Assembly (NCBI GenBank): GCA_944388045.1
Contig: CALXHG010000005.1
Span: forward strand, 5,590 to 69,589
Reading direction: 5' to 3'
Length of the DNA: 64,000 nucleotides
Source of the DNA: an uncultured Clostridia bacterium
Lineage (GTDB): Bacteria; Bacillota; Clostridia; TANB77; CAG-508
The notes beneath the pieces were generated by a model, which worked only from the letters and a program-made list of their open reading frames with translations, was not told the origin of the DNA and searched no databases. The position numbers were made by a program, and so were the translations under genes. Positions 2,643-43,064 of this stretch are shown piece after piece. The number at the start of each line of letters is the position of its first letter. The first letter of the stretch is position 1.

Positions 2643-2692
2643 AAATTCATGTAATGGGTTGAACATTCTATGAGATGATAACGAACAACACT

Positions 2693-2780
2693 ATTGGGGT
2701 CGGTCCCTTTTGTTATTGGGGTCGGTCCCTTTTGTTATTGGGGTCGGTCCCTTTTGTTATTGGGGTCGGTCCCTTTTTGC
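2693..2780 (+). repeat. Array A: 4 tandem 22-bp units ATTGGGGTCGGTCCCTTTTGTT
   Basis: Units start exactly at 2693, 2715, 2737 and 2759. A GC-rich 12-mer core in an AT-rich intergenic region. Followed by AATTGGTACCAATC (2782-2795) and GAGAACCAGTACC (2826-2838). Confidence 0.95.
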
Positions 2781-3125
2781 TAATTGGTACCAATCTTAAC
2801 TAATTTTTCTATTTTTTTAAAAAAAGAGAACCAGTACCATTTTTATTGAATATAATTAATAGAGGTATATTTAATAAATTAACCCCTCAAGAAAGGAAGA
2901 GAAAATGAATTATAAATATTATACTTCAAATAACAATTATATTCTCTTATGACGAAGAATTAAAATTCAGTAATAGCAAAGGTTTCCTCCTACAAACAAT
3001 TTAGTAAATTATAAAATTTTCACATATTTAAAAGATGAATTGTAAAAAATAATAATACAAGTTCATCTTTTTTTGATTTTATAATAATATTTAAAATTAT
3101 AAAGTAGAAATTGGAGGATTTGAAA

Positions 3126-7225: not shown

Positions 7226-8320
7226 TTACTTATTCTCTATAATCCATTCATAAACCTCATCTTCAGAAAGTTTACCCTTTTTCATTTGATTGATTTTTTC
7301 TTTAGCTTGTTTTTTCCAGTTTTCAAAGCTTTTAGCAAGTTTCTTGTTATCTTTATTTTTCTTGACTTGCATAAATTTTTGTTGATATGTTCTCCTATAT
7401 TCTCCCATAGCCTTATTTTGTTTTAATCTTTCTGTATAAGATTGGAAAGCACCTAAATCTCTACAAGACTTTGATTTTTCTTTTGGGTAATCACAATAAA
7501 TTTCATCTACTTTTGAGGTTGGAATAAAGTACATTCCACAATTTTGACATTTTTTAATTGGATAGTTAGGTGTTTTTGAAAGTTCTTCAAGTATAGCATA
7601 GCAAATACTTGATAAATCGTTACTTTTATGTGTATCACTCATTGAAAGTAGCACATTCTCTGAATGTAATGACTCTAGTATATCATATTCACTATTATTT
7701 AAAAATTCATCATATTTTCTTGAATAACTATCTCTCATAATTAAGTCATTTTTATAATAAGAATATAATTTTCCCTTTCTTTTTATTAAATAAACAGCAA
7801 ATCGTTCAGAATATGTATATTTTTCTAAATTACTGTCATTATTCAAATTATATATGTATGTAACAGCATTTATTAATTCTTCTTGTAAGTCTATTAGATT
7901 TTCTTGTAAATCTTCAAATATCTTAGTTGTTGCCTTTAAATAGTTTTCATTACTACCATAATTATTAAGTAATTCAAATTTATAATTTTCATTTAAATCT
8001 CTTAATATTTCAAAGCCATAAGCATAGAAGAAAGATTTGTAAGCCGTTTCATAATTTAATAAATCAGCATTCAAAAATCTTAATAATAAAAGTCCAAATT
8101 TCTCATAAAAAGGAAAGTAAATACTAGCAGGGTGTTTTAAGCCATTATCTGTTTTTTCCTTTTCTTTATAATAAACATCTCTTAATTTATTTTCAGTATC
8201 TAAATGATAATCAGCTTTATAAAAATATAATGGTGTAGCATAATATTCTTTTTTTGTTTCAGTATCAAACCAGAAGTAGAAATCTTGAAAGAAAGTTACT
8301 TTTGGTAATTCCATACTCAT
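7226..8320 (-). CDS. DUF6076-like protein (mobile-element associated in Firmicutes)
   Basis: C-terminal CQNCGMYFIP....YCDY......CRD cysteine cluster followed by a basic K-rich tail, as I recall for DUF6076. AGAGGTG RBS on the - strand. Confidence 0.5.
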   Translation of the reverse strand: MSMELPKVTFFQDFYFWFDTETKKEYYATPLYFYKADYHLDTENKLRDVYYKEKEKTDNGLKHPASIYFPFYEKFGLLLLRFLNADLLNYETAYKSFFYAYGFEILRDLNENYKFELLNNYGSNENYLKATTKIFEDLQENLIDLQEELINAVTYIYNLNNDSNLEKYTYSERFAVYLIKRKGKLYSYYKNDLIMRDSYSRKYDEFLNNSEYDILESLHSENVLLSMSDTHKSNDLSSICYAILEELSKTPNYPIKKCQNCGMYFIPTSKVDEIYCDYPKEKSKSCRDLGAFQSYTERLKQNKAMGEYRRTYQQKFMQVKKNKDNKKLAKSFENWKKQAKEKINQMKKGKLSEDEVYEWIIENK

Positions 8321-8457: not shown

Positions 8458-8529
8458 ATTGGGGTCGGTCCCTTTTTGTGCTGGGGTCGGTCCCTTTTTA
8501 TTATTGTGATTAGTCCACTTTTTGTGCTG
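8458..8529 (+). repeat. Array B: 2 intact units plus 1 degenerate unit of the GGGGTCGGTCCC 22-bp repeat
   Basis: ATTGGGGTCGGTCCCTTTTTGTG, then CTGGGGTCGGTCCCTTTTTA, then a decayed copy GTGATTAGTCCACTTTTTGTGCTG. Same orientation and the same CACTATT lead-in as array A. Confidence 0.9.
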
Positions 8530-8619: not shown

Positions 8620-9135
8620 ATGAAAATTTTAGGAGAAAAAAGTTTATCATCAAAAGTAATAGTAGGATTAAACATACTTTTTATATTAATAAGTATTATA
8701 GATTTATTTGTATTAACATTAATAGCAAAATCAACAAAAAACGTTATCACAAATATAAATATACAAAATAGTATATTTGATTTATTGTTATTTGTAATGA
8801 TTATAATTACAGGATTAATCGCACTTTTTATAATATATCAATTTACAAAAATATTTAAAAATTTAAAAAATAATATATTATTTACTACAAATAATTCTAA
8901 AAGCTTAAATATAATAAGCAACAGTTGTTTCATTATAAGTGTAATATATCTAATAATCTCAATACTAATAATAGCAATAGCAAAAAATTTAATAGATGAA
9001 TTTATTTACTATATATTAGCATTCTCAATAATGTTAATGATTATTTTTGTTGTATCTAGTATAGGAATAAAAATACTTAATGAAATATATAAAAAAGCAA
9101 TTGAATATAAAGAAGAAAATGAATTAACAATATAG
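8620..9135 (+). CDS. DUF2975-family membrane protein
   Basis: Four TM segments. The pairing with a downstream YozG-type HTH gene is canonical. AAAGGAGAG RBS. Confidence 0.6.
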   Translation: MKILGEKSLSSKVIVGLNILFILISIIDLFVLTLIAKSTKNVITNINIQNSIFDLLLFVMIIITGLIALFIIYQFTKIFKNLKNNILFTTNNSKSLNIISNSCFIISVIYLIISILIIAIAKNLIDEFIYYILAFSIMLMIIFVVSSIGIKILNEIYKKAIEYKEENELTI

Positions 9136-25286: not shown

Positions 25287-27224
25287 ATGAAAATAAAAAA
25301 ATTTTTATTTACAATTTTGTTCGCAATTTTTATTTTATTAATTTCACAGAATAAAGTAGATGCAACTTTAGAACTTAATAATTTAGACTTTGACGTACAA
25401 ATAAATTCTGATGGAAGTATGGATGTAACAGAAACATGGGATATTTATGTGAGTGACACAAATACTTTATTTAAAAATTTTGAGAGAGATTCATCAAAAT
25501 ATTCTAATATAATTGATGTAACAGTTAAAGAAATAACAAAAGGTAAAAATAAAGAATTTAGTCAAATATATGAAGAAATGTATCATGTTACAAAAGACTG
25601 TTATTATGCACTAAATAAAACAGACGGAAAATTTGAAATTGCATGGGGAGTTGGATTAGATAATAGTTCAGATGAAAGAGTGTACCAAATTTCATATAAA
25701 GTAGTTGATGCAATTGCAAAATATAATGATTATGCCGAAATTTATTGGCAATTTGTAGGGTCGGATTTTGAAATACCAGCAGATAAAGTTACTGGAACAA
25801 TTTTATTGCCAGACAATGCTGAAAATATACAAGATATTTTAGTTTGGGGACATACAGAAGATTTAAATGGAGATATAAATGTTACAGGTTTAAATGAAAT
25901 ATCATTTGAAATTTCAAAATATAGAGGAAATTGTTATATTGAAGTAAGATCATTATTTCCAAAAACAATGGTTGGAAATTTAAACAGAACATATAATTAT
26001 GATGTTTATGATAAAGTATTGCAAGAAGAAACTGTTTGGGCAAATGAAGCGAATGAAAGAAGAGAAGCTCGTGAAAAAGCACAAGAAAACACTATGAAAA
26101 TAATGCTTATAACAATAAGTGTTATATTTGGAGTAATTTTAATAATCTCAATTATTAATTTTATTAAAAATTTGAAAAAAATAACTAATATGGAGAAAAA
26201 ATATATTCCTACAACTGAATATGAATATTTTAGAGAATTACCATATAAAGATGCAACACCTGCAGAGGCATTATTTATAAAAAGTGAATGTAGTGATGCA
26301 AGTTTTACAAGTAGTTTTGCTGCAAATATTTTAGATTTGTGTTTAGAAAAATATATTTCATTAGAAGTAATAGAAGAAAAGTCAATTTTATCTGATGGGG
26401 TTATAAAAATTACACTATTAAATAAGCCAAAAGATAATTTAAAATTAGATGAAAAACTAACATTAAACTTTCTTGAAGATGTATCAATAGATGGAAAAGA
26501 TTTAACCACAAAAGATATTACAAGATATTTGAGAAAAAGACCAAGCAAAATAACAAGTTTAGATAAAGATCTAAATACAATAATTACAAATGTTGAGAAA
26601 AATGCTGGTAAATTTGATGATAAAAAGAAAAAAGAAAAGGAAAAATTCCAAAACCAAAAAATGTTTAATTATATTACTTTAATTCTATTATTATCACTTG
26701 GACTACCTTTGATTGGATTAACTTTGATTACATTTAGTAACTATGCAAATTCGAAAATAGTGTTGATGTGTATATGTACTGCAATTGCATTAATAGTAAA
26801 TGCAATATTATCAAGTATTATCACAAAAAGAATAAATGTTTTAACACAAGAAGGTGTAGATGAAAAAAATAAGTGGGATGCATTTGAAAAATTTATGGAA
26901 GATTTTTCTATGTTAGACCAAAAAGAAATACCAGATGTAGTATTATGGGAAAAATATTTAGTATTTGCAACAGCATTTGGAATATCTGAAAAAGTTCTAA
27001 AACAATTAAAAGTTGTTTATCCACAAATTGATGACATAAATTCACCTATATATAGTTCATTTGCATATATACATATTATGAATTCAGTAAATATTGGAAC
27101 ATGTGTTAGCTCATCTGTATATTCTGGAACATACTCATCAGGAAGTGGTTCTGGAGGAGGATTCTCTGGCGGAGGCGGAGGAGGCCGGTGGCCGGCGGCG
27201 GCGGCGGAGGTCGCTAAAACATAA
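25287..27224 (+). CDS. DUF2207-family membrane protein with glycine-rich C-terminus
   Basis: Signal/TM segment, large extracellular domain, internal TM segments, terminal SGSGSGGGFSGGGGGG. The last ~15 codons may be frameshifted. Confidence 0.7.
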   Translation: MKIKKFLFTILFAIFILLISQNKVDATLELNNLDFDVQINSDGSMDVTETWDIYVSDTNTLFKNFERDSSKYSNIIDVTVKEITKGKNKEFSQIYEEMYHVTKDCYYALNKTDGKFEIAWGVGLDNSSDERVYQISYKVVDAIAKYNDYAEIYWQFVGSDFEIPADKVTGTILLPDNAENIQDILVWGHTEDLNGDINVTGLNEISFEISKYRGNCYIEVRSLFPKTMVGNLNRTYNYDVYDKVLQEETVWANEANERREAREKAQENTMKIMLITISVIFGVILIISIINFIKNLKKITNMEKKYIPTTEYEYFRELPYKDATPAEALFIKSECSDASFTSSFAANILDLCLEKYISLEVIEEKSILSDGVIKITLLNKPKDNLKLDEKLTLNFLEDVSIDGKDLTTKDITRYLRKRPSKITSLDKDLNTIITNVEKNAGKFDDKKKKEKEKFQNQKMFNYITLILLLSLGLPLIGLTLITFSNYANSKIVLMCICTAIALIVNAILSSIITKRINVLTQEGVDEKNKWDAFEKFMEDFSMLDQKEIPDVVLWEKYLVFATAFGISEKVLKQLKVVYPQIDDINSPIYSSFAYIHIMNSVNIGTCVSSSVYSGTYSSGSGSGGGFSGGGGGGRWPAAAAEVAKT

Positions 27225-27231
27225 AACTCTA

Positions 27232-27270
27232 AAAAAATTCATTGAAAACTAAGCTTTCAATGAATTTTTT
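27232..27270 (+). terminator. Rho-independent terminator
   Basis: AAAAAATTCATTGAAA / TTTCAATGAATTTTTT. Confidence 0.7.
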
Positions 27271-27304
27271 CTTGAATAGGAAAAATCGATTTTTCCTATT
27301 CAAG
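27271..27304. repeat. Perfect 34-bp palindrome CTTGAATAGGAAAAATCGATTTTTCCTATTCAAG
   Basis: Fully self-complementary around TCGA. Lies between convergent genes. Confidence 0.9.
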
Positions 27305-27404
27305 AAAAGAGCTTCGCTCAAACGGATGCACACAAATTTTACTTTGTAAAATTTGGCGCACGAACAATAACGCGGGCTTTGAAATATTATAAACTTATAA
27401 AATG

Positions 27405-28301
27405 TTAAAAGAAGCCCGCTATTGTTCTAATAATTAACTTCATATCTAAAGGAAGTTCGCAATCAATACTTAAAGTTTTATGAGTAATAGGATGAATAAA
27501 AGAAATATGATTACAATGTAATGCTTGCCTATTAATTATAGATGATTTAGAACCATATAAAGAATCTCCAATTAAAGGATGACCAATTGCCATAAAATGA
27601 ACTCTAATTTGATGAGTTCTTCCAGTTTGAAGAGAACATTTTACTATAGATATTGCATCAGACAATTCTTTTAAAACTTCATAATGAGTTATAGCATTTT
27701 TTCCGTTAGGAGAAACACATCTTTCGATTATACTATTTTCTTTTCTATCAATAGGTAAATTTATAGTTCCAACTTTTTTATCTAAAATTCCAGAAACAAT
27801 AGCAGTATATTCTTTTTTAAACTGATTTTCGTTCATTTGTCTAATTAAACATTCCTGAATATATTCGTTTTTTGCAAAAACTATTATTCCCGAAGTATTT
27901 AAATCCAGTCTGTTTACAGGTCTAATTTTTTTCTTAAGACCAATTAAGTCAAAGTAATATCTAACACCATTAGATATGCTATCATCAAAATGTAAAATAG
28001 AAGGATGAACAGCAATGCCAGCAGGTTTGTTTAAAATCAATAAACAATCATCTTCAAATAAGATATCTAAATTCATTTTAACAGGAACTATATTATCATT
28101 TTCTTCTTCATAATTTAAATCAACTTTTATAATATTTCCAATTTTTACTTCAGAACGTGTATCAACTGCTATATCATCTAAAGAAACTAGATGATTTGAA
28201 ATAACTTTATTTATTAATCTTCCAGATAATTTGAATTCTTGCTTTAAAATTTGATTTATATTCGAATATCTATAATCTGTAACTTTATATTCTAAAAACA
28301 T
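27405..28301 (-). CDS. RluA-family (RluD-like) 23S rRNA pseudouridine synthase
   Basis: An S4-like N-terminus, then the HRLD-type NRLDLNTSG and GRTHQIRVH motifs. ATG 28301 preferred (GGTG RBS). Confidence 0.85.
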   Translation of the reverse strand: MFLEYKVTDYRYSNINQILKQEFKLSGRLINKVISNHLVSLDDIAVDTRSEVKIGNIIKVDLNYEEENDNIVPVKMNLDILFEDDCLLILNKPAGIAVHPSILHFDDSISNGVRYYFDLIGLKKKIRPVNRLDLNTSGIIVFAKNEYIQECLIRQMNENQFKKEYTAIVSGILDKKVGTINLPIDRKENSIIERCVSPNGKNAITHYEVLKELSDAISIVKCSLQTGRTHQIRVHFMAIGHPLIGDSLYGSKSSIINRQALHCNHISFIHPITHKTLSIDCELPLDMKLIIRTIAGFF

Positions 28302-28471
28302 TAAAATCACCAAAAATATTTTATAATGTTTTAGTTAAATAGTCAAATATATATAAATCAATTAAATATCTTGAAATTTTGTGTTTTATATTGTAAAATA
28401 TTTTTGGTGTGTAAGTTTATAAATTTTAGAAGAATAAAAACATATAGATTTTAAAAGATAAGGAAAGTGAT

Positions 28472-29095
28472 TTGATTTTGAAAATAATAAATATATTTAA
28501 ACATACAAGAGTTGTACTAAAACATAAGTGGGTAGTATTTAAATTATGTTGCAAAATAGGAATACCATGGAGAGGATTTTTACATGATTTTTCTAAATTT
28601 TCTCCAGAAGAATTTTGGGAAAGTGTAAAATATTTTAATGGACATAAAAGCCCTATTATAGTATGCAAAATGGAAAATGGATATTCAAAAGCATGGTTAC
28701 ACCACAAAGGTAGAAATAAACATCATCCAGAATATTGGACAGATTTAGCATTACCAGAGCAAGCAGTAATAATGCCATATAAATATTCTGCAGAAATGGT
28801 ATGTGACAAAATGGCAGCAGGAATTGTATACGAGGGGAAAAATTGGACACCAAGTACAGAAATAAATTATTATATGAAAGAAAGAGAAAATGAATTAATA
28901 AATCCACAAATGGATAAATTTATGATAGAGGTATTTACTCAAGTTGAAAAAGAAGGACTAAATAAAACATTTACAAAACAAAATATTAAAAAAATATATA
29001 ACAAATATTGCAGTAGAACGGAGAAATTAGATGAGAATAAGGTTAAAAAAATGGGCAAGACCAGAATTAGAAGCAAGCAAATTTTACATAGATAA
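28472..29095 (+). CDS. DUF5662-family protein
   Basis: [10 protein letters not shown]....GFLHDFSKF...[15 protein letters not shown] is the conserved pattern. The 3' end overlaps trmB by 65 nt. Confidence 0.6.
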
Positions 29096-29690
29096 TCCAG
29101 AAGAAATAAAAGGTAAATGGAAAGAACAATTTAAAAATAAAGAAAATCCAATTTATTTAGAACTAGGATGTGGAAAAGGAAAATTTATATCGCAATTAGC
29201 ATTACAAAATCCACAAATAAATTATATAGCAATAGATTTAGTGGATGCAATGCTAGGCTTAGCAAAAAGAGAAATTGAACAAAGATATAGTCAAGAACAA
29301 AAAGAAATAGATAATGTAATATTAACAAGATTTGATATACAAAGAATAGATTTTATATTATCAAAAGAAGATGATATAAAACGAATATATATAAATTTTT
29401 GCAATCCATGGCCAAAAGGAAAACATAGAAAAAAGAGATTAACACATACAAGACAATTAGAAAAATATAAAAATTTCTTATCAGAAAATGCAGAAATATA
29501 TTTTAAAACAGATGATGATGATTTATTTAGAGCAAGCTTAGGATATTTTGAAGAAGCAGGCTTCAAAATAATAGCAAAAAGTTATGACTTGCATAAAGAG
29601 CCAATATGGGAAAATAACATAGAAACAGAACATGAAAAAATGTTTAGTGAACAAGGCATAAAAATAAAAGCACTAATAGCTAAAATATAG
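29031..29690 (+). CDS. trmB: tRNA (guanine46-N7)-methyltransferase
   Basis: MRIRLKKWA start, [13 protein letters not shown] motif, FCNPWPK, HEKMF. Confidence 0.9.
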
Positions 29691-29698
29691 GGGTAATT

Positions 29699-30034
29699 GC
29701 TGGGGTCGGTCCCTTTTTCTATTGGGGTCGGTCCTAAAATCAACCCAAATATATAAATTGTTTTTTATACCTTGTGTGTCGCAACCTACAAAAGAATTTC
29801 AATAAGTAGGTTGCTCCAAATCGCATTCGCTACGCTCATTTGGTCGCTTACGCGGTATTACAAAACAATTTATATATTTGGTTTGATTTTAGGACCGACC
29901 CCAATAGAAAAAGGGACCGACCCCAGCAAAGAAAGGGACCGACCCCAGCAAAAAAAGGGACCGACCCCAGCAAAGAAAGGGACCGACCCCAATAGAAAAA
30001 GGGACCGACCCCAGCAGAAAAGAGGACCGACCCC
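29699..30034. repeat. Composite element C: 73/74-bp inverted arms around an 82-bp core, extended by a 7-unit 22-bp-periodic GGGACCGACCCC array
   Basis: Forward cores at 29702 and 29724. Reverse cores at 29891, 29913, 29935, 29957, 29979, 30001 and 30023, an exact 22-bp period. Arms 29699-29771 and 29854-29927 are near-perfect complements. Confidence 0.95.
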
Positions 30035-30058
30035 AACTAAAAGAAAGAGGATTATATA

Positions 30059-30538
30059 ATGGAAAAAAAGAAAAGAGTTTTATTTATTTCAAGTACAGGT
30101 GGACATTTTAATGAATTACAACAATTAAAGCCATTATTTGAAAAGTATGATTATCATATAATAACAGAAAAAGATGGAACAACAAAAAAATTGAAAGAAA
30201 AGTATGGTAATAAAATAATGTTTTTGCCATATGGAACAAGGCAGAAATTGTTTAGATATATTTTTATTTATACATTTTTATGTTTTAAAACAATTTATCT
30301 TTATTTTAAATTAAGACCTCAATATATAGTTACGACAGGAACACATACAGCAGGACCAATGTGTTATTTAGGCAAATTATTTGGAAGTAAAATAATTTAT
30401 ATAGAAACATTTGCAAACAGAAATAGAAAAACTGCTACTGGAAGATTAATTTATCCTATTGCAGATTTGTTTATTGTCCAATGGGAAGAATTACTTAAAT
30501 TATATCCAAAAGCTGTGTATGGAGGTGCAATATATTAA
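30059..30538 (+). CDS. Alg14-like / PssD-Cps14F-type glycosyltransferase membrane subunit
   Basis: VLFISSTGGHFNEL N-terminus, about 159 aa, paired with an Alg13-like gene. Confidence 0.75.
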   Translation: MEKKKRVLFISSTGGHFNELQQLKPLFEKYDYHIITEKDGTTKKLKEKYGNKIMFLPYGTRQKLFRYIFIYTFLCFKTIYLYFKLRPQYIVTTGTHTAGPMCYLGKLFGSKIIYIETFANRNRKTATGRLIYPIADLFIVQWEELLKLYPKAVYGGAIY

Positions 30539-30630
30539 TTTTATAGGACTAAATAATAAAAGTATTTGCATGCATAATATTCAAGATATTTAGATTAAAA
30601 AACATCCAAAATATAAGGAGGAGTAATATA

Positions 30631-31110
30631 TTGATATTAGTTACTTTAGGAACACAAAATAATAGTTTTCATAGATTATTAGAAGAAGTTCAAAAAAATA
30701 TTGATAATGGAAATATAAAAGAAGAAGTTATAGTACAAAATGGGTATACAAAATTTGACTCAAAACAAATGAAACTTATAAAAGAAATTCCACAAGATGA
30801 ATTTAACAAATTAATAGACCAAGCAAATTTAGTAATAACACATGGAGGAGTAGGTTCAATTATAACAGCTATAACTAAAGGAAAAAAAGTAATTGCAATT
30901 CCTAGATTAAAAAAATATAATGAACATGTAAATGACCATCAAATTGAAATAATTGATGCATTTAATGAAAAAGGTTATATTATAGGAATACATAGTGTTG
31001 AAGAATTAGGAAAGGCACTTGAAGAAGCGGAAAATTTTAAGCCACAAAAATATGTTAAAAATACTGGAAACATTTTAAAATTAGTGGAAGATTTTATTGA
31101 TAATAATTAA
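30631..31110 (+). CDS. Alg13-like / PssE-Cps14G-type glycosyltransferase catalytic subunit (GT28 C-terminal domain)
   Basis: ILVTLGTQ, ITHGGVGSI and HQIE motifs. AAGGAGGAG RBS, TTG start. Confidence 0.75.
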   Translation: MILVTLGTQNNSFHRLLEEVQKNIDNGNIKEEVIVQNGYTKFDSKQMKLIKEIPQDEFNKLIDQANLVITHGGVGSIITAITKGKKVIAIPRLKKYNEHVNDHQIEIIDAFNEKGYIIGIHSVEELGKALEEAENFKPQKYVKNTGNILKLVEDFIDNN

Positions 31111-31274
31111 ATATTTGCATCATTATATTAGAATAGAATCTTTTAGTTATTTATATGTTGGTATAGAATAATTAATATAAAGAATTTAGATAAAAAAAGT
31201 TACAAAAAATTTACAAAACAGAAAAAAAGTAAGAAAAAAGGGCAAAATTTCACAAAAATTTTGTCTTTTTACTA

Positions 31275-31303
31275 TTGCAAAAAAATAATATTATTGGTAT
31301 GAT
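31275..31303 (+). promoter_or_regulatory. Promoter TTGCAA-N17-TATGAT upstream of ftsE
   Basis: Hexamers at 31275-31280 and 31298-31303. Confidence 0.5.
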
Positions 31304-31387
31304 AAAAAAGAATGAAACCATAAAAATATGACAAAAAAATTGAAAAATAAAACTGATACAAAATTGTCAAAAGAAAAAAGAAAAAAA

Positions 31388-31437
31388 TAGAACCGGTACT
31401 TTTTTTACAATAAAAAGGGAAAAAATAGAACCGGTAC
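31388..31437 (+). repeat. Pair of TAGAACCGGTAC motifs in the ftsE leader (site E)
   Basis: Copies at 31388-31399 and 31426-31437, each preceded by an A-run. The same arrangement occurs at 42476-42524. Confidence 0.85.
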
Positions 31438-31463
31438 AAAATTGCCTTAAAGGGGAAATGAAA

Positions 31464-32150
31464 ATGATAGAATTTAGAAATGTTAGCAAAAAATATGGAA
31501 CAGGAACAGAAGCTGTTAAAAATGCTAATTTTAAAATAGATAAAGGAGAATTTGCCTTTCTTGTAGGAAGTTCAGGAAGTGGAAAATCTACATTAATAAA
31601 ATTAATATTAAAAGAAGAAGAACCAACAAGTGGAAATATAATAATAAACGGAAAAGATACAACATTTTTAAAACAAAATAGGGTACCATATTTAAGAAGA
31701 AGTATGGGAGTTGTTTTTCAGGACTTTAGATTATTACCAGATAAAACTGTTTACGAAAATGTTGCATTTGCTATGTATATAGTAAAAGCAACACCAAGAC
31801 ATATACGTAGACAAGTACCAATGGTATTATCACTTGTAGGATTAAGTAAAAAAGCAAAAATGTATCCAAATGAATTATCTGGAGGGGAGCAACAAAGAGT
31901 AGCACTTGCAAGAGCATTAGTAAATAATCCATCAATGATAATAGCAGATGAGCCTACAGGAAATTTGGACCCAGACACAGCATGGGATATTATGAATTTA
32001 TTAAATGAAATAAATTTAAGAGGAACAACAGTAGTAGTAGCAACACACGCAAAAGACATTGTAGACCAAATGAAAAAAAGAGTTATACACATCAATAAAG
32101 GTGTAATAGTTAAAGATGATAAAAAAGGTGGGTATGATTGTGAGATTTAA
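31464..32150 (+). CDS. ftsE: Cell-division ABC transporter ATP-binding protein FtsE
   Basis: Walker A GSSGSGKST, signature LSGGEQQR, Walker B IIADEP. RBS spacing favours ATG 31464. Confidence 0.9.
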   Translation: MIEFRNVSKKYGTGTEAVKNANFKIDKGEFAFLVGSSGSGKSTLIKLILKEEEPTSGNIIINGKDTTFLKQNRVPYLRRSMGVVFQDFRLLPDKTVYENVAFAMYIVKATPRHIRRQVPMVLSLVGLSKKAKMYPNELSGGEQQRVALARALVNNPSMIIADEPTGNLDPDTAWDIMNLLNEINLRGTTVVVATHAKDIVDQMKKRVIHINKGVIVKDDKKGGYDCEI

Positions 32151-33033
32151 TGTTATAAGCTATTTATTAAAAGAAGGAATACAAAATTTATTTAAAAACA
32201 AAAAATCAACAATATCATGTTTAATGATAATGATAGCAACAATGCTGATTTTTGGTTTGTTTTTTGTAATAGGAGAAAATATAAATGCATTTGTAAAAAG
32301 TGTTGCAGATGCACAAGGAATAAGAGTATTTGTGTCAAATACGGCAACAGATGAAGAAATTGAACAAGTTGGAAAAGACATTCTAGAAATTGATGGAGTA
32401 AGAGATGCAAAATATATTTCAAAAGAAGAAGGTCTTGAAACTATGAGAGAAAAGTTTGGAGACGAGCTAATGGCAGGATATATAGAAAGAAATATATTTC
32501 CAGCATCATATGAAGTAACATTAACAGATTTAGAATTAAATAATTCTGTTCAAGAAAGTTTAAGACAAATACCAAATGTAGAAGATTTGCGTTCAAGTAA
32601 CCCAACAATAGAACAAATTATAAGACTAGCAAAAGGTATAAAAATTGTTACATGGGTAATTTTAGTATTATTAATAGTTATTTCAACAGCAATAATAGCA
32701 AATACAATAAAATTAACAGTACATGCAAGAAGAAAAGAAATATCTATTATGAAATATGTTGGAGCAACAAATAGTTTTATTAGATGGCCATTTTTAGTAG
32801 AAGGTGTAATAATAGGTGTTCTTGCAGGATTAATTTCTGTGGGAATTATAGGATTATCATATACATATATTGCAGGAAAATTATCAGGAACAACTTTCTT
32901 AGAGCTAGCAAATTGGCAATTAATAGATTTCTCAAATATGTTTGAATTAATTTTAGTTGTATATTTAAGTTTAGGAGTTGGAATAGGAGCAATAGGAAGT
33001 GGAATATCAATGAAAAAATACTTAGATGTATAA
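32134..33033 (+). CDS. ftsX: Cell-division permease-like protein FtsX
   Basis: Four TM segments with a large first extracellular loop, and KYVGAT. Start is either ATG 32134 or GTG 32140. Overlaps ftsE. Confidence 0.85.
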   Translation: MIVRFNVISYLLKEGIQNLFKNKKSTISCLMIMIATMLIFGLFFVIGENINAFVKSVADAQGIRVFVSNTATDEEIEQVGKDILEIDGVRDAKYISKEEGLETMREKFGDELMAGYIERNIFPASYEVTLTDLELNNSVQESLRQIPNVEDLRSSNPTIEQIIRLAKGIKIVTWVILVLLIVISTAIIANTIKLTVHARRKEISIMKYVGATNSFIRWPFLVEGVIIGVLAGLISVGIIGLSYTYIAGKLSGTTFLELANWQLIDFSNMFELILVVYLSLGVGIGAIGSGISMKKYLDV

Positions 33034-33164
33034 AATAAGTTTTTGTCAAAAGATAGTAGAATAACAGTATTATGAAATAACAAAGCAGTAGTAAGAAGAG
33101 GTGGATACAAAAGTAAAATATTAATGAAAATGATTTTGATGTATAACAGAAAGGAAGTGGAAAT

Positions 33165-34403
33165 ATGCACAAACGTGTTTTGGCAATATTTTTAATATTA
33201 ATAATAACAATTCCAGGTATTTGTGCATATTCTACAAGTATAGATGAATTACAAGAACAATCAAATGAAATCACAAAAAATTTAACAGAAACAAATAATA
33301 GATTACAAGCAGTGCAAGAACAAGTGTCAGAAAATATGGCAGAATTGCAAAAATTAAACACAGAGTTAGCACAATATGAAGATGAAACAAACAAAATAAA
33401 AGAAGATATAGACAAAATAAACCAAGAAATTACAGAAAATGAACAAAAATTAGAAAAAATTCAAGCTGAATATGACAGTTTACAAAATTTAATTGATAGC
33501 AGACTTATAGAAATGTATAAATCAACAGATTTACAATTCCTAGATATTTTACTTACAGCAACTAATGTTAATGATTTTTTAACAACATATTATGCATTAG
33601 TAGATTTAAATAAATATGATACAGAACTTCTAGAAAATGCTAAAAAACAAAAGATAGAAATAGAAACTACAAAAAAAATACTAGAAGAAAAAAGGAAACA
33701 GTCCATTGAAAACAAACAAACATATCAAAAAAAATCACAAGTACTTCAAAACATGAGAAAAAAACAAGAATTTTACTTGTCAAAATTAACTGCAGAAGAA
33801 CAGCAATTACAAGCACAAATAGATGAATATAATACACAAGTTGCAGAAATAGAGGCAGAAATAAGGTTTTTAGCTTCAGAAAGTATAAGTGAAAGTTATA
33901 TTGGAGGAGCATTTACATGGCCAGTACCAGGACACACATCATTAACCTCATTATATGGAATGAGAGTTCATCCAATAACAGGAGCATACAAATTACATAC
34001 AGGAGTAGATATTAGTGCAGGAATAGGAACACCATTTGTAGCGGCTGCAAAAGGGGTAGTTTCTAAAGCTACATTTAATAGAGCATATGGAAACATGGTA
34101 ATAATAGATCATGGAGGAGGAGTACAAACACTATATGCACATGGAAGTGAAATTCTAGTACAAGTAGGAGATGAAGTAAATGCTGGAGATGAAGTACTAA
34201 AAGTAGGTTCAACAGGATATTCAACAGGACCACATGCACATTTCGAAATAAGAATTAATGGACAAACAGTTGATCCATTAGATTATTTAATTTATAAGAA
34301 GGGAATTGAAGAAAATGAAGAAACTGAAGAAAATGGTAAAACACCAAACAGTAATGAACCAAATAGTGAAGAAACCAATCAAAATGAACAAAATAATAAT
34401 TAA
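33165..34403 (+). CDS. Coiled-coil M23 peptidase / murein hydrolase activator (EnvC-like), copy 1
   Basis: Signal peptide, long coiled coil, HTGVDI...HGG...GPHAHFE M23 motifs, acidic N/E-rich tail. Confidence 0.85.
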   Translation: MHKRVLAIFLILIITIPGICAYSTSIDELQEQSNEITKNLTETNNRLQAVQEQVSENMAELQKLNTELAQYEDETNKIKEDIDKINQEITENEQKLEKIQAEYDSLQNLIDSRLIEMYKSTDLQFLDILLTATNVNDFLTTYYALVDLNKYDTELLENAKKQKIEIETTKKILEEKRKQSIENKQTYQKKSQVLQNMRKKQEFYLSKLTAEEQQLQAQIDEYNTQVAEIEAEIRFLASESISESYIGGAFTWPVPGHTSLTSLYGMRVHPITGAYKLHTGVDISAGIGTPFVAAAKGVVSKATFNRAYGNMVIIDHGGGVQTLYAHGSEILVQVGDEVNAGDEVLKVGSTGYSTGPHAHFEIRINGQTVDPLDYLIYKKGIEENEETEENGKTPNSNEPNSEETNQNEQNNN

Positions 34404-35559
34404 TTTGTTAACTATCAGTATATCATTAATATTATTAATGCAAAATGTAGTTTATTCAGCTAGCTCAAAAAGTGCCTTACAAGATGAAATGTCAGATACA
34501 CAAGACAAAATAGAACAATTGCAAAAAGAACAAGAAGAAATTAAAGATAATCGTTCAGAAGCAATGAAAAGTGTAGAAGATTTAATTTATCAAATATCAG
34601 ATGTAGAAAAAGAAATAGAAGATTTAGAAACAAAGGTTAATAATTTGCAAGAAAAAATTGACCAAAGCGAAAAAGACATACAACAAAAAACAGAAGAATA
34701 TAATAAACAAGAAGAATTATTAGATGCAAGATTATTAGCTTTATATAAAAGTGGAGATACATCATTTTTAGAAATATTTTTAACATCTTCTAGTATGACA
34801 GAGTTTCTTGCTAATTATTATTTAGCACAAGAACTAGTAGAATATGATAAAGAATTTATGCAATCTGTTATAGAACAAAAAGAACAATTAGAGGCAGATA
34901 AAGCACAATTAGAAGCTGATAAAAAAGAATTAGATACATCATTAACAAGGCGAAAAGCTAAACAAGTATCTTTAACAAGTATGAAAGTACAAAAAGAAAA
35001 ATATGCAGAACAATTAACAGAACAAGAAAAGAAAAATCAAGAAGAAATAGAACAATTTGAAAGAGACAAAGCAGAAATAGAAAGAGAATTAAAAAGAATT
35101 GCAGAAGAAGAAGCAAAGAAAAACTCTGTAAATATTTCTAGTACACCAAGTGCAAGTGGATATATATTCCCGGTACAAGGACTAACAAGAGCAAATATTA
35201 ATAATAAAACATATCCATCATATCCAGGACATACTGGAGTAGATGTTAATATAAATGTTACAGGAAAAAATGTTGTTGCAGTAAAAGATGGAACAGTAGT
35301 TATATCAAAAGCATTAAAAAATCCAAATGGTACATATAGAAGCTACGGAGAATATGTTGTTATAAACCATCATGATGGAACAATGACATTATATGCACAT
35401 ATGTTAGCTGGTTCTAGAAAAGTAAAAGAAGATGACAAAGTAGTTCGAGGTCAAATTATTGGAACAGTTGGCAGTACAGGAAATTCAACAGGAAATCACT
35501 TACATTTTGAGGTAAAAGTTGGAGGTAGGTCAGTAAATCCATTACCATATTTGCCATAA
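34384..35559 (+). CDS. Coiled-coil M23 peptidase / murein hydrolase activator (EnvC-like), copy 2
   Basis: Signal peptide MNKIIINLLTISISLILL starts at ATG 34384. Coiled coil, then HTGVDV...GNHLHFE. Confidence 0.8.
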   Translation: MNKIIINLLTISISLILLMQNVVYSASSKSALQDEMSDTQDKIEQLQKEQEEIKDNRSEAMKSVEDLIYQISDVEKEIEDLETKVNNLQEKIDQSEKDIQQKTEEYNKQEELLDARLLALYKSGDTSFLEIFLTSSSMTEFLANYYLAQELVEYDKEFMQSVIEQKEQLEADKAQLEADKKELDTSLTRRKAKQVSLTSMKVQKEKYAEQLTEQEKKNQEEIEQFERDKAEIERELKRIAEEEAKKNSVNISSTPSASGYIFPVQGLTRANINNKTYPSYPGHTGVDVNINVTGKNVVAVKDGTVVISKALKNPNGTYRSYGEYVVINHHDGTMTLYAHMLAGSRKVKEDDKVVRGQIIGTVGSTGNSTGNHLHFEVKVGGRSVNPLPYLP

Positions 35560-35706
35560 AAATTAATAAAAAGTTAGATATAGTATATTGTAATTTTAAT
35601 ATAATATGATTTTAATTTATAAATATATGTAGTAGAATACATTGCTATATTTAATGTAATAAATTTAAAAGGAGGAATAAGTCCTTAAAGGGCTTAAAAT
35701 AACAAA

Positions 35707-36942
35707 ATGGAAGAAAATAGTTATGTAAAAAGACAAAGATTTTATAAAACAATAATGCTTGTAGTGTTAACAGTATTTATAACATTTATATTTACAACTG
35801 TATTTATAAGCAATCAAATAGAAAAAAATGGTTCAACTAATGATAATTCAATAACATCAATTTTTCAAAATTTAACAGGAAATAGCAATTTACAAAAATC
35901 ATTAGAAACAATAGAAGAATTAGTTAAAGACAAATACTTAAATGAAATTGACGAAAAAAAAGCAATAGAAGGAGCAATTGAAGGATATGTAGACTCATTA
36001 GGAGATCCATATACAGAATACATTCCAGCAGAAGAAATGGAAGATTATACAGAAGCAATTATGGGGAATTATGTTGGGATAGGAATATATATGACAAAAA
36101 ATATAGAAAAAAATCTAATAGAAGTTTTATCTCCAATTAGAGAAAGTCCAGCAGAAGAAGCAGGAATAAAACCAGGAGATTTTATTACAAAGATAAATGG
36201 TGTATCATATACAGGAGATGAGATGACACAAGCTTCTAATGTTATAAAAGGAGAAGAAGGTTCAAAAGTAACATTAGAAATTCTTAGAGGAGATCAAACA
36301 ATAACACTTGAAGTTGAAAGAAGAAATATAAATACAAATCCAGTATATGAATATTTAATAGATGAAAATATTGGATATTTAGGAATATCAAGTTTTGATG
36401 AAGGTGTTGCAGAAGATTTTAAAAATAAGTTTTTAGATTTAAAAGACAAAGGAATAAAATCACTAATAATAGATTTAAGAGATAATGGAGGAGGGATTGT
36501 AGAAGAAGCAACACAAATTGTAGATTATATAGTTCCAAAAGGAAAAGATATATTAATAACTGTAGATAAAGACAAAAATGAAGAAATAACAAAATCTAAA
36601 GAAGATGTTTTAATAGATATGCCAGTTGTTGTTTTAGTAAATGCAAGTTCAGCTAGTGCTTCAGAAATAGTTGCAGGAGCATTAAAAGACTTAGATGAAG
36701 CAACAATTGTAGGAAGTAAAACATATGGAAAAGGTGTTATACAAGAATTTCTTTCATTAAGTAATGGAGGAGGACTAAAAATAACAATAGAAGAATATTA
36801 TACACCAAATAGAACTAAAATTAATGGAGTAGGAATTACACCAGATGTAGAAGTAGAATTAGAAACAAGTGTAACAGGTTTACCAACAGATAAAAATGAT
36901 ACTCAATTAAATAAGGCAATAGAAATATTACATCAACAATAA
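35707..36942 (+). CDS. ctpA: S41 carboxyl-terminal processing protease
   Basis: TM anchor, PDZ domain (GIKPGDFITKING), DLRDNGGG, catalytic SASASE...K. Confidence 0.9.
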   Translation: MEENSYVKRQRFYKTIMLVVLTVFITFIFTTVFISNQIEKNGSTNDNSITSIFQNLTGNSNLQKSLETIEELVKDKYLNEIDEKKAIEGAIEGYVDSLGDPYTEYIPAEEMEDYTEAIMGNYVGIGIYMTKNIEKNLIEVLSPIRESPAEEAGIKPGDFITKINGVSYTGDEMTQASNVIKGEEGSKVTLEILRGDQTITLEVERRNINTNPVYEYLIDENIGYLGISSFDEGVAEDFKNKFLDLKDKGIKSLIIDLRDNGGGIVEEATQIVDYIVPKGKDILITVDKDKNEEITKSKEDVLIDMPVVVLVNASSASASEIVAGALKDLDEATIVGSKTYGKGVIQEFLSLSNGGGLKITIEEYYTPNRTKINGVGITPDVEVELETSVTGLPTDKNDTQLNKAIEILHQQ

Positions 36943-37883: not shown

Positions 37884-38100
37884 ACTACTTAAATTAAACA
37901 AAAAGAAAAAACAAGTGCACTAAATATACTATGTACTTTGGTTGGAAAAGTTACTTTTCCAACCAGATTTGTGCTTGTATAGGAAACAATATGAAACTTT
38001 AGGTTTCTCAACTCAAAGTTAAAATAAAATTTTAAATATAAAAATTTTATTTTCAAAAGAAAAATCAAGTTTTCCTATACAAAGAAAGGAATGATTTAAG

Positions 38101-38597: not shown

Positions 38598-38837
38598 AGG
38601 TTGTAATAATTCCGTGAGAAATTTTGATATATTAATAATTGCATAAATTTTTCGACTCAATACGGAAATGTAAGAATTTCTAAAATAATTTTATGGCACC
38701 CTTTCACTTAGTCCTCGCTAACGCTCGACGCGAACATTTTCCATAAAATTAATTTAAGAAATTCTAAATTTCCTCCAATCGTATTCAAAATTTATTTATT
38801 ATTAATATATCAAAATTTCTCACGGAATTTATAACAA
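38598..38837. repeat. ~240-bp imperfect palindrome with a GC-rich centre
   Basis: The outer ~31 bp of each arm (ATTCCGTGAGAAATTTTGATATATTAATAAT / reverse complement) are perfect. The inner arms are imperfect. The centre contains TCGCTAACGC (38715-38724). Confidence 0.9.
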
Positions 38838-42260: not shown

Positions 42261-42273
42261 AAAATATTTATTT

Positions 42274-42437
42274 GGGGTCGGTCCTTTTTGCTATTAGGGT
42301 CGGTCCCTTTTTTGTCATATTTTCACTTTGAGTTGCGTAATTTACCCTAAAAACAAACACTAGACAAAAAAGGACAAAAAAGGGACCGACCCTAATAGCA
42401 AAAAGGACCGACCCCGACAACAAAAGGGACCGACCCT
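42274..42437. repeat. Composite element D: perfect 43-bp inverted arms carrying GGGGTCGGTCC repeats, plus one extra unit
   Basis: Forward cores at 42274 and 42296. Reverse cores at 42382, 42404 and 42426 (22-bp period). The spacer is about 56 bp. Confidence 0.95.
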
Positions 42438-42475
42438 AATAGTATGTTTTGCAAATAACAAAAAGAAAGCAAAAA

Positions 42476-42524
42476 GAGAACCGGCACCAAATTTCCCACT
42501 AAAGGAAAAAAGAGAACCGGTACT
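42476..42524 (+). repeat. Pair of GAGAACCGG(C/T)AC motifs in the vanZ leader (site D')
   Basis: Copies at 42476-42488 and 42512-42524, 36 nt apart, each followed by AAATTT..CC as at site E. Confidence 0.85.
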
Positions 42525-42557
42525 AAATTTGCCCAATTATCTAACAAGGAGGAAAAA

Positions 42558-43064
42558 GTGAAAAGACAAATAATTATAATAAGAATAATACTAATAATTT
42601 TATTAATAATAACATTTTTTTATATTTTTAATTTTTCAAGCCAAGACTCAGAAAAATCTGGGAACTTAAGCAGAACAATAACAGTAAGTGTAACAAAAAA
42701 TATAAAAAAAATACAAGAACTAGATTATAATAAAAAAAATGATGTATTAAATACAATTGAAAAAGTAATTAGAAAATTAGCTCATTTTTCTGAATATACT
42801 TTTTTAGGAATATTATTAATGTCATTAATGAGTACATATAATTTAAAACAGAGAAATAAATTTGTATTAAGTATAGGAATAGGGTTTTTATATGCATGTT
42901 CTGATGAGTTCCATCAGTTATTTGTACCAGGAAGAACTGCAAAATTCACAGATGTATTAATAGATACGTCAGGTGTTATTGTAGGCAGTGTAATAATATT
43001 TCTAGTAATTTCAATTATAAAAAAAACAATAGAAAAAAAGAAAAAATTGGTAGTTGATAATTAA
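42558..43064 (+). CDS. VanZ-family membrane protein
   Basis: RKLAHFSEYTFLG and DEFHQLFVPGR motifs. GTG start after AAGGAGG. Confidence 0.8.
   Translation: MKRQIIIIRIILIILLIITFFYIFNFSSQDSEKSGNLSRTITVSVTKNIKKIQELDYNKKNDVLNTIEKVIRKLAHFSEYTFLGILLMSLMSTYNLKQRNKFVLSIGIGFLYACSDEFHQLFVPGRTAKFTDVLIDTSGVIVGSVIIFLVISIIKKTIEKKKKLVVDN

Follow-up and report, generated by a model that had tools for sequence, protein, structure and literature searches.

The 22-bp repeat units found in the window (the whole 64,000-nucleotide stretch of DNA that we analyzed) represent, with a probability of about 0.8, a dispersed, non-autonomous repeat family of a RAYT-type Y1 tyrosine transposase of the TIRYT/TnpA-REP subclass 2.1 type. 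Cleavage by the enzyme, mobility of the units, and any host function are inferences.

Searching both strands of the window for GGGACCGACCCC with at most one mismatch yielded 20 matches, 12 of them exact, against a shuffled expectation of 0 (100 dinucleotide-preserving shuffles gave no match). All 20 copies are confined to four intergenic sites, A to D, each located between long open reading frames, and within the arrays the spacing is exactly 22 bp everywhere in the window. Tandem Repeats Finder likewise reported a period of 22 at 2692-2777, 29892-30042, and 42378-42442. This confirms the first-pass annotation, which had described about 20 copies of the 12-mer, all intergenic and always 22 bp apart; the unit numbers and positions that it gave for the four sites were recovered as well, and so were the few alternating spacer variants of the 22-bp units (AATAGAAAAA and AGCAAAGAAA). 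Each unit combines a conserved 13-mer (GGGACCGACCCC plus A) with roughly five variable positions and an A5 tract, the core being flanked by A-R-Y-A-N on one side and by A5 on the other, and the A5 tracts are in phase with the cores. Among 195 units, core positions 2 to 11 were at least 96% conserved and spacer positions 13 to 17 only 44 to 85%, a contrast that partly follows from the selection of the units by their core.

The coordinates of the arrays and of the associated elements are given in Table 1. Site A is placed between an open reading frame ending at 2642 and an ATG at 2906, and site B occupies a divergent intergenic region (genes at 7226-8320 on the - strand and 8620-9135 on the + strand). 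The left arm of site C begins 9 nt past the stop codon of a trmB-like gene, while the last core of its right arm ends at 30034, leaving 24 nt before the ATG (30059) of an Alg14-domain gene, as previously noted; the arm stops just short of the ribosome-binding site of this gene. The left arm of site D begins about 10 nt past an hpf-like stop codon.

Table 1. Repeat arrays and associated elements in the window
Feature	Position	Cores	Strand	Description
Site A	2692..2777	2696-2773	-	four identical head-to-tail 22-bp units, TATTGGGGTCGGTCCCTTTTGT on the + strand
Second-type unit	2822..2845		+	one copy, AAAAAAGAGAACCAGTACCATTTT
Site B	8458..8529	8461-8494	-	2 intact units and 1 in-register decayed unit, GTGATTAGTCCA, at 8505
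Site C left arm	29699..29735	29702-29735	-	2 units, GGGGTCGGTCCC-T5 orientation
Site C cargo	29736..29890		+	dispersed module of ~155 bp between the arms
Site C right arm	29891..30044	29891-30034	+	7 units, A5-GGGACCGACCCC orientation
Second-type units	31383..31440		+	two copies, AAAAATAGAACCGGTAC, 38 bp apart
Site D left arm	42270..42313	42274-42307	-	2 units, cores slightly decayed
Site D apex spacer	42314..42376		.	no sequence relation to the site C cargo
Site D right arm	42377..42442	42382-42437	+	3 units
Second-type units	42466..42535		+	two copies, AAAAAGAGAACCGGCACCAAATTTCCCAC / AAAAAAGAGAACCGGTACTAAATTTGCCCAA, period 36

At sites C and D, the left and right arms are mutual inverted repeats, a feature that had not been recorded in the first-pass annotation. 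Inside clusters, orientation switches from - to + only, once per cluster, and at the switch a T-tract meets an A-tract. Because units of opposite orientation always face each other in this way, each cluster represents a foldback (REPIN-like) hairpin whose arms vary in length. Indeed, site C folded as single-stranded DNA reached -99.2 kcal/mol (z = -13.9), and its two arms have spacer variants in common. In contrast, the single unit is neither a palindrome nor a hairpin: when both strands were folded as DNA, we obtained -1.9 kcal/mol, with z scores of -1.9 and -1.5, compared to -11 kcal/mol (z = -3.7) for an E. coli REP used as a control.

The cargo lying between the arms of site C is itself dispersed, which had also escaped the first-pass annotation. 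It is bounded by an inner inverted repeat of 27 to 29 bp (29737-29764 and 29862-29890) enclosing an asymmetric, almost invariant center (29765-29861, about 95 nt) that contains two hairpins. Ten more copies (9 full and 1 clipped at the end of the locus) were found in loci of a closely related metagenome-assembled genome (MAG), always between inverted units, and their centers are 96 to 99% identical. Of the 26 pairs in the inner inverted repeat, 9 are changed on both sides in a compensatory manner, and one-sided changes are absent. A search of the whole window with Rfam 15 at gathering score found a single tRNA and no other family, and a permissive scan of site C matched only generic long-hairpin miRNA models, far below threshold. 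We also found a related second unit type (GAGAACCGGYACY followed by AAATTT), likewise new to the annotation of this region, beside sites A and D and at a third place. The copy next to site A is oppositely oriented and separated from the T-tract end of the array by about 50 bp, and the other two pairs are located immediately 5' of an ftsE-like ATG (31458) and just 5' of a VanZ-like gene (start at 42558), respectively.

The units are not restricted to the window. We searched 185,579 species genomes for stretches with two adjacent exact cores, and 24 of the 26 stretches found belong to one MAG, CALXCA01, where they are spread over 18 contigs. This genome is about 95% identical to the window, and its locus L009 is the orthologue of window positions 27755-35739. 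Mapping of the motif in related genomes had been proposed previously, and since it occurs in 24 stretches of CALXCA01, it is not absent elsewhere. In the sister MAG, the arrays form runs of 1 to 14 units in both orientations, in intergenic regions of unrelated context, and no rep or par gene adjoins any of them.

One of the sister-genome loci (L023) harbors a 256-amino-acid open reading frame with three units upstream (GGGGTCGG on the sense strand) and two inverted units downstream. This protein is a RAYT-type Y1 (HUH) transposase. It matches the Pfam Y1_Tnp family with 44.9 bits (E = 1.5e-11; cut-off, 23), and its best NCBIfam match is REP_Tyr_transpos, at 51 bits under a cut-off of 80. The HUH motif (NHIH), the catalytic tyrosine, and the asparagine at Y+4 (YIHRN) show no variation among 26 homologues; this asparagine is RAYT specific, IS200/IS605 TnpA having a glutamine there (PMC3333891). 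An AlphaFold model of the protein (pLDDT 78.8) found as its best PDB match 4ER8_A, the E. coli RAYT with a REP hairpin (E = 2e-6, TM 0.71 on the target), followed by the IS608 and ISDra2 TnpA folds, while a full-length family profile searched against PDB sequences gave nothing at E up to 1. The protein carries a conserved C-terminal extension of about 120 amino acids, the last 72 of which are modeled as a five-helix domain (pLDDT 90.6). This domain matches Pfam HTH_7 or HTH_28 weakly, in 3 of the 26 members (E = 0.014 to 0.19), and its best Foldseek matches include DnaA domain IV (E = 1.4, TM about 0.4 to 0.5) and the ParB/Spo0J HTH, neither at a significant level; the C-terminal profile gave only noise against PDB sequences. 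The gene was present in one copy in the approximately 190 kb of sister-genome sequence examined, outside the window. A candidate second paralogue in the same MAG (P0105) was rejected, its locus coming from another sample and having a different terminal inverted repeat (GGTGACGGGGAAT). The window itself has no Y1 gene that tblastn with the transposase could detect; it is through the sister genome and the homologues that the units are connected to the enzyme.

These homologues, at 75 to 52% identity, are each flanked by their own related core. The core is GGGGTCGGTTCY for the 75% homologue (6 units, period 22), GGGACCWGGTCCC for the 58% homologue, GGGGTCGGTTCC for the 55% homologue (units 34 bp apart, 3 per side), GGGACCGGGTC for the 53% homologue, and GGGACCGGTTCT for the 52% homologue (units 32 to 34 bp apart). 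In a 12.8-kb stretch from the lineage of the latter, 9 of the 12 intergenic regions contain units. Overall, GGGWCRG was found on the sense strand upstream and on the antisense strand downstream of the gene in 33 of 54 loci of relatives, and the opposite arrangement occurred in 1. Compared to the published motif GGGGWSAS, the core agrees at 7 of 8 positions, position 7 being G instead of A in our units and R in the sampled relatives. Judged from these sequences, the 13-mer is probably best explained as this lineage's version of the GGGGWSAS/GGGGWCRG terminal-repeat motif of TIRYT enzymes.

A different reading, raised in the first-pass annotation, would be that the arrays are phased duplex sites of a DNA-binding protein, such as iterons, centromere-like sites, or operators, serving replication, segregation, or regulation. 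The exact 22-bp period, close to two helical turns, the conserved core with variable spacers, the A5 tracts phased with the cores, and the position of several arrays just 5' of start codons would all suit such sites, and so would the five-helix C-terminal domain of the enzyme with its non-significant resemblance to DnaA domain IV and the ParB/Spo0J HTH. However, this reading does not fit the presence of the same units in 24 sister-genome stretches, in unrelated contexts, in both orientations, and in runs of 1 to 14, with a rep or par gene beside none of the arrays. Furthermore, the Y1 transposase is the only gene consistently bracketed by units, and close strains differ in unit number, a variation that one would not expect an operator or iteron set to tolerate. 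We therefore consider replication, segregation, or operator sites highly improbable. The placement of every core on one face of the helix could nevertheless matter if the C-terminal helical domain of the enzyme binds duplex DNA.

The comparison of strains, which the first-pass annotation had suggested, indeed revealed a unit-number polymorphism: in the right arm of site C, the window has 7 units where the orthologue L009 has 5, the two differing by a clean 44-bp indel. Similarly, the transposase locus has three upstream units in one sample and two in another. Neighboring spacers match each other exactly in 39% of cases, compared to 4.9% for spacers from different arrays, and higher-order blocks of 2 and 5 units are present. 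The arrays thus evolve locally, blocks of 1, 2, or 5 units being duplicated or lost. Exact-protein look-ups returned only strains that are 99.7 to 100% identical, all with the same arrays. Since no empty site (presence/absence polymorphism) was seen in the strains available, where only unit numbers were found to differ, it is solely the multi-copy dispersal of the units that argues for transposition.

In another reading, the elements would be unrelated to the Y1 enzyme, being either ordinary MITEs derived from a DDE-type insertion sequence or minisatellites generated by replication slippage only. Site C does look like a MITE, with inverted ends, a length of about 350 bp, and many copies, and neighboring spacers within arrays are often identical, as they would be after slippage. 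Yet slippage cannot seed the same 12-mer into 24 separate stretches, and the roughly 335 kb of sequence fetched revealed no DDE transposase with unit ends, the Y1 gene being the only one bracketed by units. No target-site duplication was apparent at the array boundaries, which are fuzzy and were inspected non-systematically. Nor does slippage account for the matching cores at homologous Y1 genes of other lineages. A MITE or minisatellite origin is very improbable and the least credible of the alternatives that we considered.

Alternatively, the arrays might chiefly be host cis-acting RNA or DNA structures (stacked weak terminators, RNase III or other processing sites, or mRNA stabilizers) whose link to the transposase is historical; roles of the terminator, processing, and stabilizer type have been described for REPs (PMC3733652). 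In the T-tract orientation, the RNA would read GGGGUCGGUCCC-U5, that is, a 4-bp hairpin (-4.6 kcal/mol) followed by a U run, and this orientation comes directly after the upstream stop codon at sites A, C, and D. By a rough count, about 7 single-arm arrays have the T-tract orientation and 3 do not, and site C would give rise to a very long hairpin in the trmB-alg14 transcript. On the other hand, no site meets a simple terminator consensus, the unit hairpins are far weaker than functional terminators, and promoter and terminator scans of sites A and C gave nothing attributable to the arrays. In addition, site B and several of the MAG arrays either occupy divergent promoter regions or are antisense to the transcripts on their flanks, and neither the dispersal of the units nor the co-variation of core and transposase would be explained. 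As the main explanation, host structures are therefore very unlikely; a role of this kind is possible and is best seen as a secondary use, compatible with a transposase-linked repeat family. It is plausible that alg14 is co-transcribed through the site C structure or controlled by it, as the first-pass annotation had proposed.

The closest published class is that of the TIRYT enzymes and their TIRtrons (PMC3733652, PMC6006769), TIRYT being equated with TnpA-REP subclass 2.1. Di Nocera et al. (2013; PMC3733652) described RAYT-like genes flanked by GGGGWSAS terminal inverted repeats together with dispersed families of these repeats, and Quentin et al. (2018; PMC6006769) found subclass 2.1 enzymes to be long, with an HTH-like C terminus (Bac_DnaA_C, HTH_23, or HTH_28). 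Our system shares with this class a RAYT-like Y1 HUH gene, seen in one copy and longer than IS200 TnpA by a C-terminal helical extension, flanking inverted repeats that are not hairpins and contain GGGG-W-S-x-S (here GGGGTCGG), and dispersal of the repeat as singles, dimers, and clusters. It differs in that the repeat is a 13-bp core plus A-tract, amplified head to tail into arrays of as many as 14 units with a strict period of 22 bp, that opposite arrays form foldback hairpins, some of them with the conserved 155-bp cargo, and that the host belongs to an uncultured gut Clostridia lineage with 25% G+C. Furthermore, while no repeats were reported near subclass 2.1 genes (PMC6006769), they are obvious here and fill most intergenic regions in one related lineage.

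The first-pass annotation had also named REP/BIME-like dispersed elements as a model, and this is the one that the evidence supports, since the units flank a RAYT-type Y1 gene in inverted orientation and their core co-varies with that protein; the fit is not exact. As in the REP/REPIN-RAYT systems of E. coli and Pseudomonas (PMC3333891, PMC3116915), a domesticated Y1 transposase lies between inverted copies of a short, abundant extragenic repeat (20- to 40-nt class), tandem copy number is variable between strains, and the fold of the enzyme is closest to 4ER8. The inverted doublets, like REPINs, form one hairpin from two inverted repeats whose arms evolve in a compensatory way. Like REPs in the strict sense, the units are extragenic, of high copy number, and linked to a RAYT gene that lies between inverted copies of them, but they fall outside the strict definition because they are non-palindromic and lack a conserved GTAG or CGTC tag. 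Neither are the arrays BIMEs, since the units run head-to-tail at a fixed period instead of alternating as REP and iREP with linkers, although the co-occurrence of two unit types in clusters loosely recalls them. With IS200/IS605 TnpA (IS608, ISDra2), the enzyme shares the HUH/Y1 catalytic core, but its gene is not multiplied and is enclosed in symmetric inverted repeats rather than in distinct left- and right-end hairpins. A CRISPR array, with repeats of 24 to 48 bp and unique spacers of similar length, was ruled out given the 12-bp core and the A-rich spacers, which are 10 bp long and belong to a few shared variants. A literature search for the 12-mers retrieved nothing relevant.

The Drosophila foldback (FB) transposons have long inverted arms made of tandem repeats, unequal and variable in length, with an optional central segment. 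The layout of the arms may be regarded as analogous to that of our clusters; these elements are eukaryotic, with another transposase and other repeat sizes, and no homology is implied.

In the mechanism that we propose for the Y1 transposase and its repeat family, the enzyme would recognize the core, either by its HUH domain on foldback DNA or by its C-terminal helical domain on duplex DNA. Single-stranded DNA would then be cut and rejoined, allowing units to spread to new intergenic sites, and this cut-and-join is expected to proceed without target-site duplication, as in IS200/IS605. At site C and at 10 other sister-genome loci, the hairpin carries the conserved cargo of about 155 bp at its apex. 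Since the single unit is not a hairpin, single-arm arrays, of which sites A and B are examples, cannot be recognized by the hairpin-based mechanism established for RAYT and IS200/IS605. At trmB-alg14, possible by-products would be read-through, processing of the RNA, or stabilization of the transcript.

A bolder version of this mechanism, which we find unlikely but worth stating, is that clostridial TIRYT enzymes would recognize a non-hairpin site of 12 to 13 bp as duplex DNA through a DnaA-domain-IV-like C terminus and would build phased 22-bp arrays by unit-wise HUH cut-and-join, the arrays and the 95-nt center of the cargo having also been co-opted as a genome-wide cis-element, with possible roles in RNA processing or stability or in the organization of the nucleoid or the replication fork. 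If so, recognition and amplification would be unlike the hairpin-guided mode of RAYT and IS200/IS605, and the element family would colonize most intergenic regions in some gut Clostridia. REP/RAYT biology has so far been drawn almost entirely from Proteobacteria, and the TIRYT (subclass 2.1) branch is without biochemistry. The loci described here offer this branch a clean, minimal candidate substrate, with a 13-bp core and a fixed 22-bp period, and the co-variation of enzyme and site, together with the natural variation in unit number, makes the mechanism of recognition and amplification directly testable. The arrays break metagenome assemblies, the contigs L040, L041, and L010 ending inside them, and create spurious open reading frames, so that knowing the family also helps to annotate low-GC gut Clostridia.

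Arrays of the same 12-mer also occur in Streptomyces and Chthoniobacteraceae, where the 8 kb fetched contained no Y1 gene; chance could account for this shared sequence.

Across the whole window, 20 matches to the core GGGACCGACCCC were found at ≤1 mismatch, 12 of them exact, and no match was obtained in 100 dinucleotide-preserving shuffles. The 22-bp arrays are real and far beyond chance. Inside every run of the four clusters (sites A to D), the start-to-start distance is 22 bp without exception, and period-22 arrays were called at sites A, C, and D by Tandem Repeats Finder. The core is conspicuous because its G+C content is 75% within a window of ~25%. All clusters are intergenic, with long ORFs on both sides, and 24 nt separate the end of the last site C core from the ATG of a gene encoding a Pfam Alg14 domain. 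The first-pass annotation, which had reported about 20 copies of the 12-mer, all intergenic and at a constant 22-bp spacing, as well as 24 nt between the site C array and an alg14-like start, described the arrays accurately.

Coordinates and properties of the repeat arrays and associated features (window positions unless a fetched locus, L006 or L020, is named)
Feature	Position	Core	Details
Site A cores	2696-2773		
Site B cores	8461-8494		
Site C cores, left arm	29702-29735		
Site C cores, right arm	29891-30034		
Site C cargo	29736-29890		~155 bp between arms; dispersed module
Site D cores, left arm	42274-42307		
Site D cores, right arm	42382-42437		
Second-type units	2822-2845		beside site A
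Second-type units	31383-31440		directly 5' of ftsE-like gene
Second-type units	42466-42535		beside site D, directly 5' of VanZ-like gene
Other MITE-like hairpin repeat	27264-27432		
Other MITE-like hairpin repeat	37975-38082		
Other MITE-like hairpin repeat	38608-38822		
Streptomyces sp. NPDC050535 array	L006 7703-7824	GGGGTCGGTCCCGGGCCGCACG	six units, period 22, intergenic
Chthoniobacteraceae MAG array	L020 1622-1665	same 12-mer	two units, 22-bp period
75% transposase homologue		GGGGTCGGTTCY	spacing 22 bp, six units
58% transposase homologue		GGGACCWGGTCCC	
55% transposase homologue		GGGGTCGGTTCC	spacing 34 bp, three units per side
53% transposase homologue		GGGACCGGGTC	spacing 43 bp (two units)
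52% transposase homologue		GGGACCGGTTCT	spacing 32-34 bp

From 195 units, we derived the consensus A5-GGGACCGACCCC-A-R-Y-A-N. Core positions 2 to 11 are conserved at at least 96%, the two end positions at 81% and 90%, and the spacer at 44 to 85%, a contrast that is partly a selection effect since the units were picked by their core. At sites C and D, the units fall into two groups that are mutual inverted repeats, a feature missed by the first reading: the orientation is GGGGTCGGTCCC-T5 on the left and A5-GGGACCGACCCC on the right. The clusters are foldbacks with a fixed polarity. In the window and in 24 stretches of a sister genome, orientation within clusters flips only from T-tract to A-tract, never the reverse, and seemingly unidirectional arrays usually harbor one flipped terminal unit, still on a 22- to 23-bp register. 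The folding energy of the entire site C is -99.2 kcal/mol (z = -13.9). A lone unit folded as DNA gave -1.9 kcal/mol (z = -1.9 on one strand and -1.5 on the other) and no hairpin, compared to -11 kcal/mol (z = -3.7) for an E. coli REP control. The arrays change locally, as indicated by identical neighboring spacers (39% of cases versus 4.9% between arrays), by higher-order blocks of 2 and 5 units, and by strain differences in unit number.

Scanning one genome per species (185,579 species) with two cores 10 nt apart returned 26 stretches, 24 of which come from 18 different contigs of a single MAG, uncultured Clostridia bacterium BRZ_ER__bin71 (CALXCA01). This sister genome is ~95% identical to the window across the overlap, and its locus L009 is the orthologue of window positions 27755-35739. 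There, the left arm and the cargo (the module between the arms) of site C are unchanged, but the right arm has five units against seven in the window, which amounts to a clean indel of 44 bp. The same arrays recur in near-identical strains (99.7 to 100%) of other samples. The 22-bp units are dispersed, with a core conserved against variable spacers. Since metagenome contigs L040, L041, and L010 terminate inside arrays and long arrays give rise to spurious ORFs without stops (window 29772-30059 is one case), the repeat family breaks up assemblies and can mislead gene callers.

At locus L023 of the sister MAG, a 256-amino-acid ORF lies between three units on one side and two inverted units on the other; it is a RAYT-type Y1 transposase (REP-associated Y1 HUH tyrosine transposase). 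It matches Pfam Y1_Tnp above the cut-off (E = 1.5e-11), and its best NCBIfam match is "REP-associated tyrosine transposase," whose score of 51 bits falls short of the cut-off of 80. Three features never vary among 26 homologues: the HUH motif, the catalytic Tyr, and an Asn at position +4 from that Tyr; this Asn separates TnpA-REP from IS200/IS605 TnpA (Ton-Hoang et al., PMC3333891). The best PDB match of the AlphaFold model (pLDDT 78.8) is 4ER8, the E. coli RAYT with a REP hairpin (E = 2e-6), followed by the IS608 and ISDra2 transposases. The last 72 residues form five helices in a confident model, and sequence and fold matches of this C-terminal domain to HTH domains were weak or nonsignificant. 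The gene is single copy in the sister-genome sequence examined and absent from the window; in an independent sample, it is preceded by two units versus three.

The units are tied to this enzyme, and its relatives carry matching sites. We found 442 homologues (E < 1e-10), nearly all of ~260 residues, in chromosomal, stable neighborhoods recurring across samples and flanked by their own related cores, inverted as at L023. In the lineage hosting the 52% homologue (P0112; L029 1-12789, with the same locus in other samples as L030 and L031), units occupy 9 of 12 intergenic regions over 12.8 kb. These form CAGAACCGGTCCCAAATG doublets whose starts are separated by 32 bp, mostly in one orientation just 5' of ribosome-binding sites, a density far above that of classical REPs. 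A metagenome scan added 80 more distant relatives (25 to 52% identity); around their genes, the longest inverted repeats belong to the GGGGACGGTTC, GGGGTCAGGC, GGGGACAGA, or AGGGACAGACCCC type. Among the relatives' loci with enough flank, GGGWCRG was sense upstream and antisense downstream in 33 of 54, and the opposite arrangement occurred in 1 of 54.

RAYT-like genes with terminal inverted repeats (TIRs) on either side, in place of REP hairpins, were described by Di Nocera et al. (PMC3733652); the repeats have GGGGWSAS in common. These authors introduced the names TIRtron for the system and TIRYT for the enzyme and found dispersed TIR families to be moderately abundant, arranged as dimers or clusters. 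The systems were equated with TnpA-REP subclass 2.1 by Quentin et al. (PMC6006769); proteins of this subclass are long and have an HTH-like C terminus, and the searches by Quentin et al. found no REP-like sequences near subclass 2.1 genes. The gene-sense strand of the window core, GGGGTCGG, matches the TIRYT consensus at 7 of 8 positions. Unlike classical REPs, which are palindromic single units with a GTAG or CGTC tag, the window units are not palindromes and lack either tag, and the arrays do not alternate as BIMEs do. Because of this, we place the elements in the TIRYT/TIR class, with REPIN-like behavior, rather than among the REPs. The models initially favored (iterons, partition sites, and operators) are not supported, while the fallback of REP-like dispersed elements was essentially right, given the tie to a RAYT-type enzyme. 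Among the known RAYT/TIRYT repeat systems, the family counts as a new member of unusual regularity, and it offers a convenient minimal candidate substrate for the TIRYT enzyme branch, so far without biochemical study. The remaining 2 of the 26 stretches returned by the genome scan, from Streptomyces and Chthoniobacteraceae, represent two unrelated phyla; no Y1 gene was found in either 8-kb stretch, and their arrays may reflect chance or be TIRYT related.

We propose that the enzyme would recognize the core, cut single-stranded DNA, and rejoin the ends, an activity that would give rise to new sites and to gains or losses of units, in parallel with the strand-transfer model for BIME amplification (PMC3333891). 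The mobilized form would be foldbacks, with or without cargo, as for REPINs. At sites A and B, where the arrays have a single arm and the units form no hairpin, the C-terminal domain might recognize duplex DNA, in which case the 22-bp phasing would gain meaning. Regarding neighboring genes, the arm after the upstream stop codon at sites A, C, and D would read GGGGUCGGUCCC-U5 in RNA, with a predicted hairpin of -4.6 kcal/mol. Arrays elsewhere are found in divergent intergenic regions or antisense to their neighbors. Scans at sites A and C found no terminator or promoter consensus. Judging from the sequence, it is plausible that alg14 is cotranscribed through a very stable predicted hairpin.

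The site C cargo has 10 further copies in sister-genome loci (one cut off at the locus end), all between inverted units and 96 to 99% identical over the central 95 nt. Between copies, its inner inverted repeat shows double changes in 9 of 26 pairs and one-sided changes in none of the 26. Since one-sided (G-U type) intermediates are absent, a DNA-level hairpin constraint fits better than an RNA-level one. Rfam has no family for the arrays, units, or cargo. The cargo center (29765-29861) also contains a perfect 9-bp stem, GCAACCTAC...GTAGGTTGC, which puts GTAG, the classical REP tag, on both strands; this may be a coincidence.

A second unit type consists of GAGAACCGGYACY followed by AAATTT, with a period of 36 to 38 bp, and resembles the longer (32- to 34-bp) units flanking the 52 to 55% transposase homologues. 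In three MAG copies, it is innermost, next to the cargo. The three other MITE-like hairpin repeats, without a match in Rfam, each have several copies in the sister MAG (85 to 97% identity); that at 38608-38822 has perfect 33-bp terminal inverted repeats (ATTCCGTGAGAAATTTTGATATATTAATAAT). A GAGCG(T)TAGCGA-like motif is common to the site C cargo and the GC-rich centers of these three repeats. Finally, a GGC/GGCGGC-rich run at 27168-27207, in a genome of ~25% G+C, lies just 5' of a TAA stop (~27216, + strand) and of the 27264-27432 repeat.
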